This document shows, one piece after another, positions 1,371 through 43,376 of a stretch of 64,000 nt of DNA (within the stretch, counting starts at the first letter, position 1; each line of letters opens with the position of its first letter). A model generated the notes under the pieces. That model had not been told where the DNA came from and ran no database searches. It saw only the letters and a list, made by a program, of their open reading frames with translations. The DNA is taken from sequence record JX128259; one strand, given 5' to 3'. A program made the position numbers and the translations under genes. The DNA is from Escherichia phage ECML-134.

Positions 1371-1396
1371 AGGGAGCCTTCGGGCTCCCTTTTTCT
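1371..1396 (+). terminator. Rho-independent terminator after gene 23
   Basis: Hairpin AGGGAGCC-TTCG-GGCTCCCT followed by TTTTT. Confidence 0.85.
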
Positions 1397-2066
1397 ATTT
1401 TATACGATAGCAATCAGGCATATCATCCGCATTTATCCAATTGCGAATAGTTTTAGGACTAACTTTAAAATGCTCCGCTGCGTAATCAGGATTATCAAAT
1501 TTAACGCCCTTTATACATATTGGAATAAATTTTTTAATACCACCAAGTTTTTCAGAAATAGCTTTACGATGTGAAATCGATATAGGTTTATTTTTTCGTG
1601 GATGAACATGTGTTTTATAATATTCATTGCGCCCTTTAACTCGCTTCGCAATAGTTTCATCAGATTGCTTAACGCCTGTTTTTGCCTTTGATATTTTTCG
1701 TTTAGCTTCCACAGTCATTCCTTCTTTTGTTCGTATTGATAACATATTACGATATGAAGGATCTTGCAAATGAACTATAACTGGATTTCCTCTGCCACCA
1801 ATAGCAGCATTATAGGTATCAGTTCTCATAACGAATTCCTCATTGACTAGTAAAGCTTCCATTTTATACATCTCCTCAGATGAGGAGAAAGAATAAAGAA
1901 TTTCTTTTTTAAAGTTATGAATACCATATTTTTTGATGGATTTTTTGATGTTTACGCCAGAACCCATATAACCATCGTTTTCGTCAAGAGTAGCATGAGC
2001 TCCGATGTAAATTTTTCCATTGATGATATTAGTAATTTGATATATTAAATATTTCATTTTAAACAT
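1395..2066 (-). CDS. segD: GIY-YIG family homing endonuclease-like protein (SegD-like); start codon uncertain (2096, 2066 or 2057)
   Basis: N-terminal YLIYQITNIINGKIYIG GIY-YIG motif; free-standing between genes 23 and 24 as in T4. Confidence 0.8.
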   Translation of the reverse strand: MFKMKYLIYQITNIINGKIYIGAHATLDENDGYMGSGVNIKKSIKKYGIHNFKKEILYSFSSSEEMYKMEALLVNEEFVMRTDTYNAAIGGRGNPVIVHLQDPSYRNMLSIRTKEGMTVEAKRKISKAKTGVKQSDETIAKRVKGRNEYYKTHVHPRKNKPISISHRKAISEKLGGIKKFIPICIKGVKFDNPDYAAEHFKVSPKTIRNWINADDMPDCYRIK

Positions 2067-2121
2067 CGCTCCGTTTGTATATGAATATAATATCATATTA
2101 CTTTGGTCTTGTAAATAACTT

Positions 2122-31734: not shown

Positions 31735-33322
<1,588 letters not shown>

Positions 33323-33349
33323 AATAAAATGGGCCTTGCGGCCCACTCC

Positions 33350-34528
33350 TTAAAAGTATTTTTTAAAACTCATCATAACTTTATCATCAACATCATTATC
33401 AATCTGTGCTACAAGGTAAGATGACAGTTCTACTTCTTGCGGCGCGGATTGAACATTATCAGAATTAAGGTATTCACGAATCCAAGGATATGGATGTTTA
33501 ACCGGAGCATCGGTAATTGGGCATGGAAGACCACACTGTTTCATACGAGATACAGTTAAGTAATCAATAAAGCTCCACATGCTATTTGTATTTAATCCAG
33601 GAACATCGCCATCTTTAAATAAATGAACTGCCCAATCTTTTTCTTGGCGGTTAACTTCCATGAAAATATCAACTGCTTCTTGTTCACACTCTTGAGCAAT
33701 TTTAACCCATTCATCGCCATCAGTGCCAAGTTGAAGTTGACGAATAATATATTGAGTGCCTTTAAGGTGAAGCTGCTCATCACGTGCAATAAACTTCATA
33801 ATCTTGGCATTACCTTCCATGATTTCCATGTTCTTATGGAAGTTAAAGGTACATGCAAAAGATACATAAAAACGAATAGCTTCTAAGGCATTAATAACGT
33901 GTAAACAGAGGTAAAGAGACTTCATTAAAGCGCGTTTAGCTTCGGCTTCTTGCTTAATAGCTCGGTTTAAACGAAAGTCGGCATCAGGAGATTCTTTAGC
34001 TAGTTCTACAAATTCTTTAGCATTTTCCCATTCACGGGTTTTAATCAGAACATCATCATAATAGCGACCGATAGATTCAGCACGTTTCATGATAGCTTCA
34101 TCTAATACAATCTCATCAAATACCTTTGACGGATCAGTATAAAGATTTCGCATGATATGAGTATATGAACGACTGTGAATAGTTTCACTAAAAGTCCATG
34201 TAGCAACCCATGTATCAAGGCTTGGGTCTGAAATTAATGACATAAGTACAGCAGACGGCGCACGGCCCTGAATGCTATCCAAAAGTGATTGATACTTCAG
34301 GTTGTTAGTAAAAATATTTTGCTGATACTGAGGAAGCTTATTAAACTGTGCAGCATCCATCATTAAGTTTACTTCTTCCGGGCGCCAGAAAAATGACAAT
34401 TGCTTTTCGGTCAAATCTTCAAAAACTTTATGGCGTTGAATATCATAACGCGCAATACCAAGACCTGAACCAAAAAACATAGGTTCTTTTAAAACATCAA
34501 CTGGATTTGTGTTAAAAATTGTGCTCAT
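33350..34528 (-). CDS. nrdB: Ribonucleotide reductase class Ia beta subunit, uninterrupted
   Basis: 392-aa continuous ORF with iron-centre motifs (EAIHS-like ETIHSRSY, tyrosyl-radical region); no intron. Confidence 0.92.
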   Translation of the reverse strand: MSTIFNTNPVDVLKEPMFFGSGLGIARYDIQRHKVFEDLTEKQLSFFWRPEEVNLMMDAAQFNKLPQYQQNIFTNNLKYQSLLDSIQGRAPSAVLMSLISDPSLDTWVATWTFSETIHSRSYTHIMRNLYTDPSKVFDEIVLDEAIMKRAESIGRYYDDVLIKTREWENAKEFVELAKESPDADFRLNRAIKQEAEAKRALMKSLYLCLHVINALEAIRFYVSFACTFNFHKNMEIMEGNAKIMKFIARDEQLHLKGTQYIIRQLQLGTDGDEWVKIAQECEQEAVDIFMEVNRQEKDWAVHLFKDGDVPGLNTNSMWSFIDYLTVSRMKQCGLPCPITDAPVKHPYPWIREYLNSDNVQSAPQEVELSSYLVAQIDNDVDDKVMMSFKKYF

Positions 34529-34579
34529 AAATTTTCCGCTTAGTTAATAGTTGGTGACTCGTCCGTGAGTCAAATTATA

Positions 34580-36844
34580 TCATAATTTACAGGATGAACA
34601 ATCTTCAGCTTTTGGAGTTTCTATTTCATAATCATCAGTACCAGAACCATCACGGGTATTATGATAATAGAAATTTTTTCCGCCAAAATACCAGAAATAC
34701 AAAAGGTCATCAATCATTATTGACATTGGAACCTTTCCTTTTGGAAAAATCTGCGGGTCATAGTATGTATTCGCTGAAGCTGATTGACATACCCATTTCA
34801 GCATAATAGCTACTTGCGTAAGATAAGGTTTATTACCTTTCTTAGCTAATTTCCATGTATAATCATATAGGTCTATGTTATGCTCAATATTGGGCACGAC
34901 TTGATTAAAGGAGCCCTCTTTTGATTCTTTAACAGAGACTGGTCCACGTGGAGGCTCGATACCGTTTGTACTGTTAGAAACTTGGGAAGATGACTCACAT
35001 GGCATAAGTGCTGATAATGTGCTATTACGGATGCCAAAGAGCTTAAGGTCTTCCCGCAGCGACGACCAGTCACAAACGTATTTTGGAGCTGCGATTTGGT
35101 CAATCTTTTTATTGTACCAGTCGATAGGTAATTCGCCTCGAGACCAACGAGTGTCTGAATAATATTCGCAAGGTCCTTTTTCTTTGGCGAGATTAATGGA
35201 TGCTTTAATGAGTCCATACTGTAATCTCTCAAATAGTTCATGTGTTAAATCGTTAGCATCTTCATAAGAAGCAAAGTTACTTGCCAGCCAAGCTGCATAG
35301 TTGGTAACACCTACACCAAGGTTACGACGCTTTTTAGCTTTTTCTGCTTCAGGAACTGGATATCCTTGGTAATCCAAAAGATTATCAAGAGCACGAACTT
35401 GAACTTCTGCCAATTCATTAATTTTATCTTGGTCTTGCCAATCAAAATTATCTAGTACGAATGCAGAGAGAGTACACAATCCAATTTCAGCATCAGGACT
35501 ATTCACATCATTTGTTGGAATAGCAATTTCACAGCACAAGTTACTCTGACGAATAGGTGCCTTTTCACGAATAAACGGAGTATAGTTATTCGTATTATCA
35601 ATGAACTGTACATAAATCCTTGCTGTTCCTGAACGTTCAGTCATGAGCAATTCAAATAGTTCACGGGCTTTAATACGCTTTTTACGAATATTAGGATCTT
35701 TTTCTGCTGCTTCGTATAATTCACGGAAACGGTCTTGGTCTTTAAAATAAGAATAATAAAGCTCGCCACCCATTTCATGCGGACTGAACAAAGTAATGTA
35801 ATCGTTCTTTCCAAAACGTTCCATCATCAAATCATTCAGCTGAACACCATAATCCATATGACGAATGCGGTTTTCTTCTACGCCTTTGTTATTTTTCAAA
35901 ACGAGAAGATTTTCAACTTCCAAATGCCAAATAGGATAATAAGCAGTAGCAGCGCCGCCACGAATTCCACCCTGTGAACATGATTTAACTGCAGTCTGAA
36001 AATGTTTCCAAAAAGGAATAACACCAGTATGACGTACTTCACCCATGCCAATCTTAGAACCTTCAGCACGAATCATACCAACGTTAATACCAATTCCAGC
36101 GCGTTTAGAGATATATTCAACAATTGAAGCGGAAGCCTTATTGATAGACTTCAGCGAATCACCTGCCTCAATAACAACGCATGAACTGAACTGTCGAGTC
36201 GGAGTACGACAACCAGCCATAATAGGAGTTGGCAATGAAATCTGTCGAGTAGATACTGCTTCATAAAAACGAATAACATGTTTTAATCTATCAACAGGTT
36301 CATCTTGATGCAATGCCATTCCAATAGTCATAAATGCAAACTGTGGAGTTTCATAAATTTGACCAGTGGTTTTATCTTTAACTAAATATTTTTCTTTTAA
36401 TTGCATCGCCCCGGAATAAGTAAATTCCATATCCCGTTCGTGCTTAATTTTTGATTCTAAAAATGTAATTTCTTCTGCTGAATATTTTGACAACAATTCA
36501 GGGTCATATTTACCTGCATTTACACAATAAGAAATATGGTCAATAAATGAACGTGGTTCATACTGCCCATAAACATGCTTACGAAGAGCGAACATTAAAC
36601 AGCGTGCAGCTACATATTGATAATCAGGCTCTTCAACCGAAATAGAATTCGCAGCGGCCTTAATGACAATAGTCTGAATATCATCAGTTGTCATTCCATC
36701 ACGGAGATATGATTTAATATTTTCATATAATTCATAAGGATCTACTGATGTTCCCTCAGCTGCCCAAGATAAAACTTTAATAATTTTTTGCGGGTCAAAG
36801 CTCTGAGAAACACCACTACTTTTGATAACATTAATTAATTGCAT
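34580..36844 (-). CDS. nrdA: Ribonucleotide reductase class Ia alpha subunit
   Basis: 754 aa; ATP-cone N-terminus, active-site NLCCEI and C-terminal redox cysteines CSSCKL. Confidence 0.95.
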   Translation of the reverse strand: MQLINVIKSSGVSQSFDPQKIIKVLSWAAEGTSVDPYELYENIKSYLRDGMTTDDIQTIVIKAAANSISVEEPDYQYVAARCLMFALRKHVYGQYEPRSFIDHISYCVNAGKYDPELLSKYSAEEITFLESKIKHERDMEFTYSGAMQLKEKYLVKDKTTGQIYETPQFAFMTIGMALHQDEPVDRLKHVIRFYEAVSTRQISLPTPIMAGCRTPTRQFSSCVVIEAGDSLKSINKASASIVEYISKRAGIGINVGMIRAEGSKIGMGEVRHTGVIPFWKHFQTAVKSCSQGGIRGGAATAYYPIWHLEVENLLVLKNNKGVEENRIRHMDYGVQLNDLMMERFGKNDYITLFSPHEMGGELYYSYFKDQDRFRELYEAAEKDPNIRKKRIKARELFELLMTERSGTARIYVQFIDNTNNYTPFIREKAPIRQSNLCCEIAIPTNDVNSPDAEIGLCTLSAFVLDNFDWQDQDKINELAEVQVRALDNLLDYQGYPVPEAEKAKKRRNLGVGVTNYAAWLASNFASYEDANDLTHELFERLQYGLIKASINLAKEKGPCEYYSDTRWSRGELPIDWYNKKIDQIAAPKYVCDWSSLREDLKLFGIRNSTLSALMPCESSSQVSNSTNGIEPPRGPVSVKESKEGSFNQVVPNIEHNIDLYDYTWKLAKKGNKPYLTQVAIMLKWVCQSASANTYYDPQIFPKGKVPMSIMIDDLLYFWYFGGKNFYYHNTRDGSGTDDYEIETPKAEDCSSCKL

Positions 36845-37161
36845 AAGTCCTCAACTTGAAAATCGTCTTTAAACAGTCGGTTAACTATATGAGCTATTAT
36901 ATCACCATGACACGGATTTGGTTTACATGTGCATCCTAGCCTCATTCCACGTAAAGGCTCTAAATGTGCTTTAGTTATTTCTCCGGATTTAATTCGACGT
37001 ATAAAATCTTTTTTGAATAATTCAATGGCAGCCGGGAGGCTGCCAGCATCTTTACCGACGTAATTTCCCCAAAATGTACCACGGTGAATATTAACATCAA
37101 AGTCGGATTTATATTTATTCACTACCTGGCATAGACGGCCCGCGCGGTGATAATTCGTCAT
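36835..37161 (-). CDS. Hypothetical protein (nrdA.1-like)
   Basis: 108-aa ORF. Confidence 0.6.
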
Positions 37162-37390
37162 ATTGTTTTTCCGTTAAAACAGTAATATCATAGTAACAAT
37201 CAGAAGAAGTTTTAACTGTAGAAATTTTATTATCAAAATACTCACGAGTCATTTTATGAGTATAATATTTTTTGCCATAAATGATAATAGGCTGATTTGG
37301 TCCTGGAACTTCTAGCTCACTTGGATTAGGAAGTGTAAAAAGAACTACACCAGAAGTATCTTTAAATCGTAAAATCATATATCCTCGCAA
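37115..37390 (-). CDS. Hypothetical protein (nrdA.2-like)
   Basis: 91-aa ORF. Confidence 0.55.
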
Positions 37391-37401
37391 TTAAATTGAA
37401 A

Positions 37402-37713
37402 TTACACCGCCATCTTTCCTTTAATTGGCGGGTGAGATACATAGTTGTTAAGAACAAAATTATGCGGCTTTGCGAATTGACTCAACCAAAATACCTGCGA
37501 TTCTGTGTTCCATTCATCAAATTCATCTGGAAATTTTAATTGTAATTCGCATAAATCCATAGGTTCACGACGCAAAATTTCTTTACATTGTTCTACGTGA
37601 TTCATATAGATATGAGTATTACCGCCAGAAAATATCAAATCTCCAGGAATAAGATTACACATCTTAGCTACAATATGAACTAACGCAGCATATGATGCAA
37701 TATTAAACGGTAG
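37402..37713 (-). CDS. td: Thymidylate synthase, exon 2
   Basis: Continues exon 1 in frame after intron removal: ...DVFLG|LPFNIASYAALVH...; exons total 286 aa. Confidence 0.92.
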   Translation of the reverse strand, partial: LPFNIASYAALVHIVAKMCNLIPGDLIFSGGNTHIYMNHVEQCKEILRREPMDLCELQLKFPDEFDEWNTESQVFWLSQFAKPHNFVLNNYVSHPPIKGKMAV

Positions 37714-38729
37714 CATTATGTTCAGATAAGGTCGTTAATCTTACCCCGGAATTATATCCAGCTGCATGTCACCATGCAGAGCAGACTATATCTCCAACTT
37801 GTTAAAGCAAGTTGTCTATCGTTTCGAGTCACTTGACCCTACTCCCCAAAGGGATAGTCGTTAGGCATTTATGTAGAACCAATTCCATTTATCAGATTTT
37901 ACACGATAAGTAACTAATCCAGACGAAATTTTAAAATGTCTAGCTGCATCTGCTGCACATTCAAAAATAACCCCATCACATGAAATCTTTTTAATATTAC
38001 TAGGCTTTTTACCTTTCATCTTTTCTGATATTTTAGATTTAGTTATGTCTGAATGCTTATGATTAAAGAATGAATTATTTTCACCTGAACGATTTCTGCA
38101 TTTACTACAAGTATAAGCAGAAGTTTGTATGCGAACACCACACTTACAAAACTTATGGGTTTCTGGATTCCAACGCCCATTTTCACTTCCATATTTACCA
38201 TAAAGAGCTTTTCGGCCTTTTACGCCGAGTTTAAGCATATTTACTTTAACAGTTTCAGAGCGTTTCTTGATAATTTCTTCTTTTAATGGATGTGTAGAAC
38301 ATGTATCACCAAACGTTGCATCAGCAATATTGTATCCATTAATTTTAGAATTAAGCTCTTTAATCCAAAAATTTTCTCGTTCAATAATCAAATCTTTCTC
38401 ATATGGAATTTCTTCCAAAATAGAACATTCAAACACATTACCATGTTTGTTAAAAGACCTCTGAAGTTTTATAGAAGAATGGCATCCTTTTTCTAAATCT
38501 TTAAAATGCCTCTTCCATCTCTTTTCAAAATCTTTAGCACTTCCTACATATACTTTATTGTTTAAAGTATTTTTAATCTGATAAATTCCACTTTTCATAA
38601 ATACCTCTTTAAATATAGAAGTATTTATTAAAGGGCAGTCCTACAATTTAGCACGGGATTGTCTACTAGAGAGGTTCCCCGTTTAGATAGATTACAAGTA
38701 TAAGTCACCTTATACTCAGGCCTCAATTA
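37714..38729 (-). ncRNA. Self-splicing group I intron in td, 1016 nt
   Basis: Intron 5-prime end reads TAATTGAGGCCTGAGTATAAGGTGACTTATAC..., recalled td intron sequence; 3-prime terminal G at 37714; length 1016 as recalled for the T4 td intron. Confidence 0.92.
37861..38598 (-). CDS. I-TevI: Intron-encoded GIY-YIG homing endonuclease I-TevI
   Basis: 245 aa; GIYQIKNTLNNKVYVGSA GIY-YIG motif; zinc finger CKCGVRIQTSAYTCSKC; lies inside the td intron. Confidence 0.95.
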   Translation of the reverse strand: MKSGIYQIKNTLNNKVYVGSAKDFEKRWKRHFKDLEKGCHSSIKLQRSFNKHGNVFECSILEEIPYEKDLIIERENFWIKELNSKINGYNIADATFGDTCSTHPLKEEIIKKRSETVKVNMLKLGVKGRKALYGKYGSENGRWNPETHKFCKCGVRIQTSAYTCSKCRNRSGENNSFFNHKHSDITKSKISEKMKGKKPSNIKKISCDGVIFECAADAARHFKISSGLVTYRVKSDKWNWFYINA

Positions 38730-39278
38730 ACCCAAGAAAACATCTACTGAGCGTTGATACCATTGAAGGTCAAGGTATCCATTACGCACATTAAACTGAT
38801 AGAACATATGACAAGGCGGTAATGCCATATATTTAAGTTCAGCTGGATTCCATGCAGAAACAATTTGACGCCTATCATTTGGCAATTTTTTAATACGATC
38901 AACAACTTCTATAATTTGGTCTACACCGCCAAAATCGCGCCATTGTTTTCCATAAATTGGACCAAGTTCACCGCTATGGTATCCTAAATCTTTTGCTTGA
39001 TTTTCGTAATTTTCATCCCAGACTGTTTTGCCTTGAATTAATGAATCATGTTGAATTAATCGTAAATCATTGACATTTGTGCTTCCCGATAAAAACCATA
39101 TTAGCTCAGCAATGCAAGCTTTCCAGGCGAGCTTCTTAGTTGTTACTGCAGGAAAACCTTTAGTTAAATCCCAGCGTAATTTAGTACCGAACAAAGCAAT
39201 TGTTCCTGTGCCCGTTCTGTCATCGGTTTCATAGCCATTTTCAAAAATGTCTTTAATTAAATCTTGGTATTGTTTCAT
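38730..39278 (-). CDS. td: Thymidylate synthase, exon 1
   Basis: 183 codons ending ...DVFLG immediately before the intron 5-prime TAA; active-site region ALPPCH. Confidence 0.93.
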
Positions 39279-39323: not shown

Positions 39324-39671
39324 TCAATACGGTTTAGCATCAAATTTTCTCTCAATTTCAGGCGTGAAATATAATTCTTTACCGCGTTTGGAAAAGCGAC
39401 CAATAATATGATAATTATTCTCATCAAACGTAATATTACCAATATCCATAGCTTTCAACCAAATATCGATATTTCTATCCAGCTTTATGTCAAAATTCCA
39501 ATACGGAGAACTATTACCGAAAATACTGCAAGCAGATTCAGTGAAACAACTGCTATAAATCTTGTCTTTAGGAACTACTAATTGATAGACACCTTTAATA
39601 AACTGAGGACCCTGCCATTTAGGTTGTTTCACGTCTTTTTCTAATAGAATAGGGTAATAATTAAAATTCAT
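39324..39671 (-). CDS. Hypothetical protein encoded between frd and td (about 115 aa from the ATG; the ORF track extends to a GTG at 39683)
   Basis: Uninterrupted ORF filling a 413-bp gap between frd stop and td start. Confidence 0.55.
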   Translation of the reverse strand: MNFNYYPILLEKDVKQPKWQGPQFIKGVYQLVVPKDKIYSSCFTESACSIFGNSSPYWNFDIKLDRNIDIWLKAMDIGNITFDENNYHIIGRFSKRGKELYFTPEIERKFDAKPY

Positions 39672-39691
39672 ATTTTCCGCCACGCGTTATT

Positions 39692-41714: not shown

Positions 41715-42623
41715 TTAAAGGTCATTCAAAAGGTCATCCAGGTCCGTGTCATCAGCACTAGATGAACTGCCAGAGCTTGAGCTCATAAAATCATCTTCAG
41801 TTTTTGTATTGAAGTCATCAACATTGAATGCATCCAAATCATCAGCAACTTTATCAGCTTTCTTAGCAGCAGTCGCTGCGGCACCACCCATTGCAGCAGT
41901 TCCCATAACTTGACCGAATTTAGTGCTCAGTTCTTCAAATGATTTGAATTTATCTTTAGAAGTCATTTCAGAAAGGTCAACCATTTGTTCGAACAGTTCT
42001 TTCTGGAAAGATTCATCGTCAATGTTTGGAATCGCAGATTGATTCAGGAATTTAGATTCGTCGTAGTTACTAAAACCAGAAACTTGTTTAACTTTCAGTA
42101 CAAAGTTAGCACCTTCCCACGGACAAGTTACATCAACCGGAGTTTCACCCATTTCAACATCAACTGCAATCATTGCATTGATTTTATCCCAGATTTTCTT
42201 ACCGAAACGATATTTAAATACTTTACCTTCGTTTTCTGGAGCAGCTGGGTCTTTTACAACAAGAATGTTAGCCCAGTAAGAAGTTTTACGTTTAACAAGA
42301 CTGTACTCTTTATTGTCAGTGTTGTACAAATCATTTTTACTGATGTACTGACATACTGGACAAGAATCGTAATCACCGTAGGTAGATGAGCATGTTTCGA
42401 TATACCATTTACCATTTTTCTTGAAACCGTGATTTACAAGAAGTGCGAATGGTGCTTGTTCATCATTTTTAGACGGAAGAAAACGAATTACTGCTTGGCC
42501 GTTACCCGCATTGTCGAGTTTCAGTTTCCACTCGCCTTTATCTTCAGAAGAAAAACCACCTTTATTTCCAGCCAGTTTAGCCATTTGCGCAGCGAGTTCA
42601 GCAGTAGATTTACGTTTAAACAT
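41715..42623 (-). CDS. 32: gp32 single-stranded DNA-binding protein
   Basis: 302 aa; acidic Ser/Asp-rich C-terminal tail; zinc-binding Cys/His cluster; T4 length. Confidence 0.95.
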
Positions 42624-42700
42624 TTTTATTTCCTTTTTAATTTAATTAACAGTTGGTGCTATGACGATGTATGACCTCATAGCTGGTCAGTGAGATAATT
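42624..42700 (-). promoter_or_regulatory. Gene 32 5-prime leader / translational autoregulatory operator (A/U-rich unstructured region)
   Basis: Long A/T-rich leader TTAATTAAATTAAAAAGGAAATAAAAATG upstream of gene 32; gp32 autoregulation is established for T4. Confidence 0.6.
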
Positions 42701-42706
42701 ATAATC

Positions 42707-42714
42707 TATTTATA
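42707..42714 (-). promoter_or_regulatory. Late promoter TATAAATA (gene 32)
   Basis: Octamer on the - strand in the 59-32 intergenic region. Confidence 0.65.
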
Positions 42715-42722
42715 ATAAGCAA

Positions 42723-43376
42723 TTAATACTTGCAAGATTTCACAGTTTCAATGAAAACATTTTTAGCTTTCTGTGAATCAATATTTAAAATTTTTCTATA
42801 AGCCTTTAACTTTATAGAATAATTATTCCAGACTAAATTATCAGTCTGTTCATCATGTTTATCAATTATATTTAAAAACGAATCAAGCAAGATAAACGTT
42901 TCAAACGAAATTATATTCGATTGAAGTAGTTTAAAAATATAACTTGATTGAACTTTTGGATTATACTCAAAGATTTCTTTAAAAGCAGAAACTTCAACTT
43001 TTTTACTAAAATAGTAAATATTGCGAATATCTTCTTCAAACTTAAATTTAATTTGCTTTAAGCGTCCGATATATTCACGATAAAACACAAGTGCATCAGC
43101 GTCAGAGATGTCACCAATCCAAGCATCTTGGTTAGCAACCAAATTACTTATAAAAATTAAAGCAAGTTCCTTTAATTTATATTTTTCTGATAACTTCTGG
43201 AAAAAATACTTATCCCTTCGCTTTTGATAAGCGGCATCAGACACCCGCATGCACCAATTATACTTAATAACATCATACTTTCCATTCATATGCTGTTTTA
43301 TCATTAAGTATAATTTATAAACTGATTTACCATCAATGTATCTTTCACCACCAGCAGGCATGCGGAGTTTAATCAT
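42723..43376 (-). CDS. 59: gp59 helicase loader
   Basis: 217 aa, T4 length and position. Confidence 0.9.
   Translation of the reverse strand: MIKLRMPAGGERYIDGKSVYKLYLMIKQHMNGKYDVIKYNWCMRVSDAAYQKRRDKYFFQKLSEKYKLKELALIFISNLVANQDAWIGDISDADALVFYREYIGRLKQIKFKFEEDIRNIYYFSKKVEVSAFKEIFEYNPKVQSSYIFKLLQSNIISFETFILLDSFLNIIDKHDEQTDNLVWNNYSIKLKAYRKILNIDSQKAKNVFIETVKSCKY

Follow-up and report, generated by a model that had tools for sequence, protein, structure and literature searches.

In the annotated genome of phage T4 (NC_000866), both nrdB and td are two-piece genes; the nrdB intron (598 nt) contains a truncated I-TevIII, and nrdB.1 and mobE lie between nrdA and nrdB. Stocks of T2 and T6 were at one time reported to have the td intron only. 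The presence or absence of introns is an established polymorphism of the T-even phages (PMC2988022; PMC2790892), and it was this variable occurrence that gave the original evidence for intron mobility (PMC2988022). In nrdB alleles of the RB3/AV121 type, the insertion site is the same as that in T4 and is occupied by an intron of ~1.09 kb that encodes an active HNH endonuclease, I-TevIII. Cleavage by I-TevIII takes place at −14/−16 of the homing site (PMC1865063), and the endonuclease MobE nicks nrdB of T2 at nt 122–126, where the gene has a polymorphic segment (nt 114–131; PMC2790892).

The window analyzed here is a stretch of 64,000 nt from Escherichia phage ECML-134 (JX128259), which, judged by its sequence, is a Tequatrovirus (T4-like coliphage). 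Over the 25 kb from 20000 to 44900, the closest genome is that of vB_EcoM_SCS4 (98.1% identical), and T6, PST, and NBG2 are about 96–97% identical. The genes of the minus strand run in the order rnlA, denA, nrdB, nrdA, nrdA.1, nrdA.2, td (split), a small extra ORF, and frd, in agreement with the annotated records of T4, T6, T2, and SCS4; nrdA (34580..36844, minus strand) encodes the large subunit of 754 aa and is uninterrupted.

Among the phages compared, T6 (MH550421 / NC_054907) has the same combination of introns, with a continuous nrdB and a td gene (97.3% identical overall) that carries a 1016-nt intron and a 245-aa I-TevI, and it has the same added ORF between td and frd; T6 differs from ECML-134 in the presence of a full mobE between nrdA and nrdB, in its T4-type I-TevI linker, and in a 388-codon nrdB that represents another allele (88% identity). 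The architecture of vB_EcoM_SCS4 (ON506924) is that of ECML-134, including an nrdB of 1179 nt, a 51-nt spacer, and no mobE, and its td intron is 100% identical with the U5-type I-TevI linker included, whereas the nrdB alleles of the two phages share only 92.3% identity. The T2 isolate AP018813 shares with ECML-134 an intron-less nrdB of 392 codons, the 51-nt spacer without mobE, the polymorphism at the MobE site, and, at the nrdB insertion site, an A in position −2, but it also lacks the td intron, and its td is continuous over 861 nt. T4 resembles ECML-134 in the td insertion site, the ribozyme sequence, I-TevI, and the nrdB exon sequence near the intron site; it differs, in addition to its nrdB intron, nrdB.1, and mobE, in the C-terminal segment of td and in the lack of an ORF between td and frd. 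The first-pass annotation of this DNA held that ECML-134 is not the T4 reference at the intron level and that it resembles T-even relatives without the nrdB intron. Both points are borne out, the former by the two-piece nrdB of T4, whose td is split and carries I-TevI as in ECML-134, and the latter by T6 and SCS4, which share the pattern; T2 AP018813 has neither intron.

The continuous nrdB gene and its unoccupied insertion site

The nrdB gene, which encodes the small subunit of class Ia ribonucleotide reductase, lies at 33350..34528 on the minus strand as a single unbroken ORF of 392 codons. Residues 33–335 of the translation match the Pfam family Ribonuc_red_sm (E = 8.6e-37), and the ExxHxxxY and ExxH motifs of class Ia NrdB are present. 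Four motifs for the iron ligands and the radical, LLDSIQGR (82), SETIHSRSY (114), ALEAIRFY (214), and ARDEQLH (248), were found, their residues being assigned by the corresponding positions of E. coli R2.

In a BLAST comparison with the intron-containing nrdB gene of T4, ECML-134 nrdB aligns in two collinear blocks (nt 1–674 with T4 gene nt 1–662, and nt 677–1179 with T4 gene nt 1263–1765). The T4 intron (598 nt, gene nt 665–1262) is flanked by ...TCTTTTGCGT and GTACCTTTAAC...; since the two blocks skip this stretch, the intron of T4 is exactly absent from ECML-134. In the multiple alignment, the junction is free of gaps and reads ...TCTTTTGCAT|GTACCTTTAAC... in ECML-134, compared with ...TCTTTTGCGT|GTACCTTTAAC... 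in the joined T4 exons, which places the unoccupied equivalent of the T4/RB3 insertion site between 33853 and 33852 (minus strand). The exons of RB3/AV121-type nrdB are 98% identical to ECML-134, and no counterpart of the I-TevIII intron of those alleles is found in ECML-134: BLAST and alignment detected no insertion of an nrdB group I intron or I-TevIII between ...TTTTGCGT and GTACCTTT..., and a permissive Rfam scan of 32900–37400 gave no sign of a group I intron at E ≤ 1. The T4 locus, used as a positive control, yielded an Intron_gpI match of 35.7 bits within its nrdB intron (E = 3.7e-6), a score that is itself under the Rfam gathering threshold. The description of nrdB in the first-pass annotation as one continuous 392-codon ORF thus agrees with the ORF list, the Pfam match, and the T4 alignment; aligning the gene to the T4 exon junctions gives a precise absence of the intron with a clean junction at 33853/33852, and the overlooked insertion of intron size that would have spoken against the description does not appear in the BLAST comparison, the alignment, or the permissive Rfam scan.

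The product is 392 aa long, compared with 388 aa in T4 and T6, and the four added codons fall within a variable segment around codons 170–200. The same segment (33930–34020, minus strand) is strongly divergent. The identity of nrdB to the SCS4 allele is 92.3%, as against 98.1% over the surrounding 25 kb, and nrdB is therefore mosaic between the two phages.

The stretch equivalent to the I-TevIII homing site, from −45 to +25 (33828..33897, minus strand), is identical at 69 of 70 positions to the characterized T4 intron-deleted substrate, and the cleavage positions (−14/−16) correspond to 33866 and 33868 in ECML-134. The one mismatch, an A instead of G at −2, is synonymous in an Ala codon; A is common to T2 and SCS4, and the intron-bearing alleles that were compared (T4 and AV121) have G. 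It is reasonable to regard nrdB of ECML-134 as an intron-minus homing site, as the first-pass annotation had proposed and as this identity supports at the sequence level, with cleavage assumed for a site that differs at −2 from the T4 site that was tested. At the MobE nick site, the polymorphic segment at nrdB nt 114–131 (34398..34415, minus strand) is the T2-like version that occurs without mobE. The T2-type spacer between nrdA and nrdB (34529..34579, minus strand) measures 51 nt and contains neither mobE nor nrdB.1; T4 has nrdB.1 and mobE at this place, T6 has mobE, and the 51-nt spacer recurs in T2 and SCS4. Because mobE is missing and the spacer is of the T2 type, nrdB looks like a naive recipient for both mobE and the I-TevIII intron.

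The td intron and its endonuclease

The td gene is split on the minus strand into exon 1 (38730..39278), exon 2 (37402..37713), and an intervening group I intron of 1016 nt (37714..38729). Exon 1 comprises 183 codons and ends in ...CTTGGGT, after which TAA follows directly; exon 2 comprises 103 codons plus the stop and has a T6-type C-terminal segment. The intron starts with TAATTGAGGCCT / TAATTGAGGCCTGAG and ends in ...CATAATG / ...GAACATAATG, and the two junctions, ...CTTGGGT|TAATTGAGG... and ...CATAATG|CTACCG..., are identical to those of T4, T6, and U5, with U as the last nucleotide of exon 1 and G as the last of the intron, as at the canonical td insertion site. When the exons are joined, they encode in frame a thymidylate synthase of 286 aa that differs from that of T6 at one residue and aligns with the Pfam family Thymidylat_synt from one end to the other (E = 2.3e-94). 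The boundaries of the 1016-nt intron by which td had been said to be split are thus confirmed, the 5′ junction being identical to that of T4.

Comparison with T4 assigns the 5′ ribozyme part (P1–P6 strands), together with the region upstream of I-TevI, to 38599..38729 and the 3′ ribozyme part (P7–P9.2 strands), which has no difference from T4, to 37714..37860 (both minus strand); outside the ORF, the single difference from T4 NC_000866 is that a T is lacking at intron position 92/93. The intron as a whole is 100% identical to that of SCS4 and 97.6% identical to T4 M12742, which aligns to it over 1016 nt in one piece; the introns of T6 and U5 are also 1016 nt long. A permissive Rfam scan gave a partial Intron_gpI match at 37762–37992 (40.5 bits, E = 2.4e-8), which is under the gathering score of 50 because the I-TevI ORF splits the catalytic core. 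At the gathering threshold, a scan of the whole window reported nothing, which reflects how poorly the model suits introns that contain an ORF and does not count as evidence against the intron, and the T4 td intron itself went unreported in a 12-kb control scan at E ≤ 0.01. In an MFE fold of the ORF-deleted intron, long hairpins formed that presumably are P2, P3, P8, and P9. The near identity to T4, the partial Rfam match, and the fold all point to a conserved catalytic core (P3–P9), and from its likeness to the T4 intron we infer that the td intron would undergo guanosine-dependent self-splicing.

The intron contains the I-TevI gene (37861..38598, minus strand), and the ORF, read from 38598 to 37861, is the full-length 245-aa GIY-YIG homing endonuclease that the first-pass annotation had described. 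Its three Pfam domains are GIY-YIG (E = 2.1e-18), I-TevI_ZnF (E = 1.3e-20), and I-TevI_DNA-bd (E = 2.6e-32), corresponding to the N-terminal catalytic domain, the zinc finger of the linker, and the DNA-binding domain at the C terminus. The protein is identical at 237 of 245 residues to those of T4 and T6, with no frameshift or stop; residues 1–118 are identical to T4, GIY (4–6), YVG (17–19), R27, E75, and N90 are conserved, and all of the zinc-finger cysteines (C151, C153, C164, and C167) are kept. The eight differences from T4 are A119V, K120N, P126V, D127K, S134G, P136Y, K139E, and D213E, seven of which fall in the linker at residues 119–139, and 21 of the 25 nucleotide differences in the ORF are packed into about 115 nt (intron nt 437–551). 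This linker is of the U5 type, as the U5 I-TevI has the same linker except at residue 119. When a 201-nt probe for the patch (38120–38320, minus strand) was compared with the database, close matches were found only in SCS4 (100%) and U5 td (AY262155; 98%), and 154 other records fell in the 80–90% band (about 89% among the matches listed). The U5-type allele is thus rare and mildly unusual, yet it had been deposited previously.

With its clustered differences, the linker segment resembles a patch acquired by recombination from a relative of I-TevI that has not been sampled; the td-intron endonucleases of Mosigvirus AV115 and Gelderlandvirus Melville, which are more distant, were rejected as sources, as both have T4-like versions or versions of their own. 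The allele could at once be such a patch and have an altered preference for cleavage distance or spacer, a combined proposal that we consider improbable. If it were true, the U5-type linker would be of interest, as a natural variant, for Tev-based nucleases.

Two observations concern the td exons. In exon 1, eight synonymous substitutions relative to both T4 and T6 occur within 16 nt (38763–38778, minus strand), at −33 to −48 relative to the 5′ splice site and just upstream of the I-TevI cleavage motif CAACG; some of them are common to U5, and the cluster may mark where a tract of co-conversion or recombination ends. In exon 2, residues 235–268 (37402–37560, minus strand) are of the T6 type and 29 of the 34 differ from T4, which makes the C-terminal segment a variable cassette in an otherwise conserved thymidylate synthase.

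Frequency and history of the intron pattern

In the phage collection, the 120-nt nrdB junction is uninterrupted and in one place in 485 records, 118 records contain 80% or more of the nrdB intron of T4 (many with the full-length form of ~1.09 kb), and at least 80% of the td intron is present in 197. The states of td and nrdB were counted separately in these searches, and combined states were taken from named example genomes: T6, vB_EcoM_SCS4, NBG2, and HEMP5 are among those with the td intron and no nrdB intron, SHFML-11 and BCPSen_003 are examples with both introns, and T2 AP018813 has neither. The pattern seen in ECML-134 has been known since the 1980s and occurs in hundreds of sequenced genomes, and an intron-less nrdB is the majority state. 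Some relatives, PD112 (MH837626), HP3 (KY608967), and vB_EcoM_112 (NC_024125), cover just 26–45% of the td intron, and PD112 has an insertion of ~300 nt at the nrdB junction, which suggests that ORF-deleted mini-introns may be present in both td and nrdB of some of these phages.

The locus is almost certainly an ordinary case of the presence/absence polymorphism of mobile group I introns in Tequatrovirus, with a td intron that carries I-TevI and an nrdB gene that is intron-less, and nothing that was observed speaks against this reading. The state of nrdB might instead be secondary, an AV121-like, intron-containing allele having lost its intron precisely through recombination with an intron-less allele in a mixed infection or through a copy of the spliced RNA, so that invasion had not simply been escaped. 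The nrdB alleles closest to ECML-134 in the database, those of AV121 and WilhelmHis (98%), do carry the full-length intron (~1.09 kb) with I-TevIII, so intron-plus and intron-minus alleles differ by little besides the intron. Against a loss, the A at −2, shared with T2 and SCS4 where T4 and AV121 have G, places nrdB of ECML-134 with the intron-less alleles; ECML-134 differs from AV121 at +17 and +23 as well; the intron-less alleles of ZCEC14, KMB22, and NBG2 are equally close (97.8–97.9%); and a gain of the intron in AV121-like phages fits the data equally well. We therefore judge a precise loss to be unlikely, if still worth keeping in view. It is scarcely credible, on the other hand, that nrdB is not truly intact and is interrupted elsewhere, is a pseudogene, or is an artefact of assembly. 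Nothing in favor of a pseudogene or artefact was found in nrdB, and the ORF aligns collinearly from end to end with those of T2, T6, and SCS4 and with spliced T4 NrdB, has the length (1179 nt) common to ECML-134, T2, and SCS4, retains its metal-ligand and radical motifs along with the Pfam match over residues 33–335, and has the same continuous junction as the 485 independent records.

For td, it could be argued that the intron and its endonuclease are a decaying copy, in which splicing is perhaps kept and I-TevI has been inactivated or altered by the clustered changes in its linker. Such a reading would draw on the eight amino acid changes relative to T4 and T6, since the seven at residues 119–139 lie in the linker, which sets the cleavage distance, but the ORF is full length without frameshift or stop, its three Pfam domains are far above the cut-off, the catalytic and zinc-finger residues that were checked are kept, and the same linker allele is intact in U5 and SCS4, which argues for a functional variant. 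Decay is thus very improbable.

With the pattern read as presence/absence polymorphism of mobile introns, the td intron would self-splice from the td pre-mRNA and allow the 286-aa thymidylate synthase to be made. In co-infecting phages whose td is intron-less, I-TevI is expected to cut 23/25 nt upstream of the td insertion site, and the cut would lead to homing by double-strand-break repair. NrdB would be made from the intron-less, T2-type allele without splicing, and in mixed infections ECML-134 would be the likely recipient, not the donor, for mobE and for the nrdB intron with I-TevIII. For annotation, td should be given two exons, with the I-TevI gene nested inside it, and nrdB only one; beyond this the pattern has little import, and it illustrates the textbook point that the introns of T-even phages are optional mobile elements.

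Other features of the window

The small extra ORF between td and frd (39324–39683, minus strand) starts with GTG, encodes 119 aa, and has no Pfam match; ORFs are annotated at this position in T6 (RB32ORF229c), T2, and SCS4 and are absent in T4, where td and frd abut. Gene 32 (41715–42623) and gene 59 (42723–43376) are separated by a gap of only 99 nt (42624–42722), which means that no segG homing endonuclease gene is present between them; T6 is also without segG, and T4 carries segG between these two genes. An odd ORF of 426 aa at the start of the window proved to be the part of gene 23 that falls inside the window. An ORF of 233 aa between gene 23 and gene 24 (1395–2096, minus strand) has a GIY-YIG-like N-terminus (YLIYQITNIINGKIYIGAH) and occupies the position of the free-standing endonuclease gene segD of T4.
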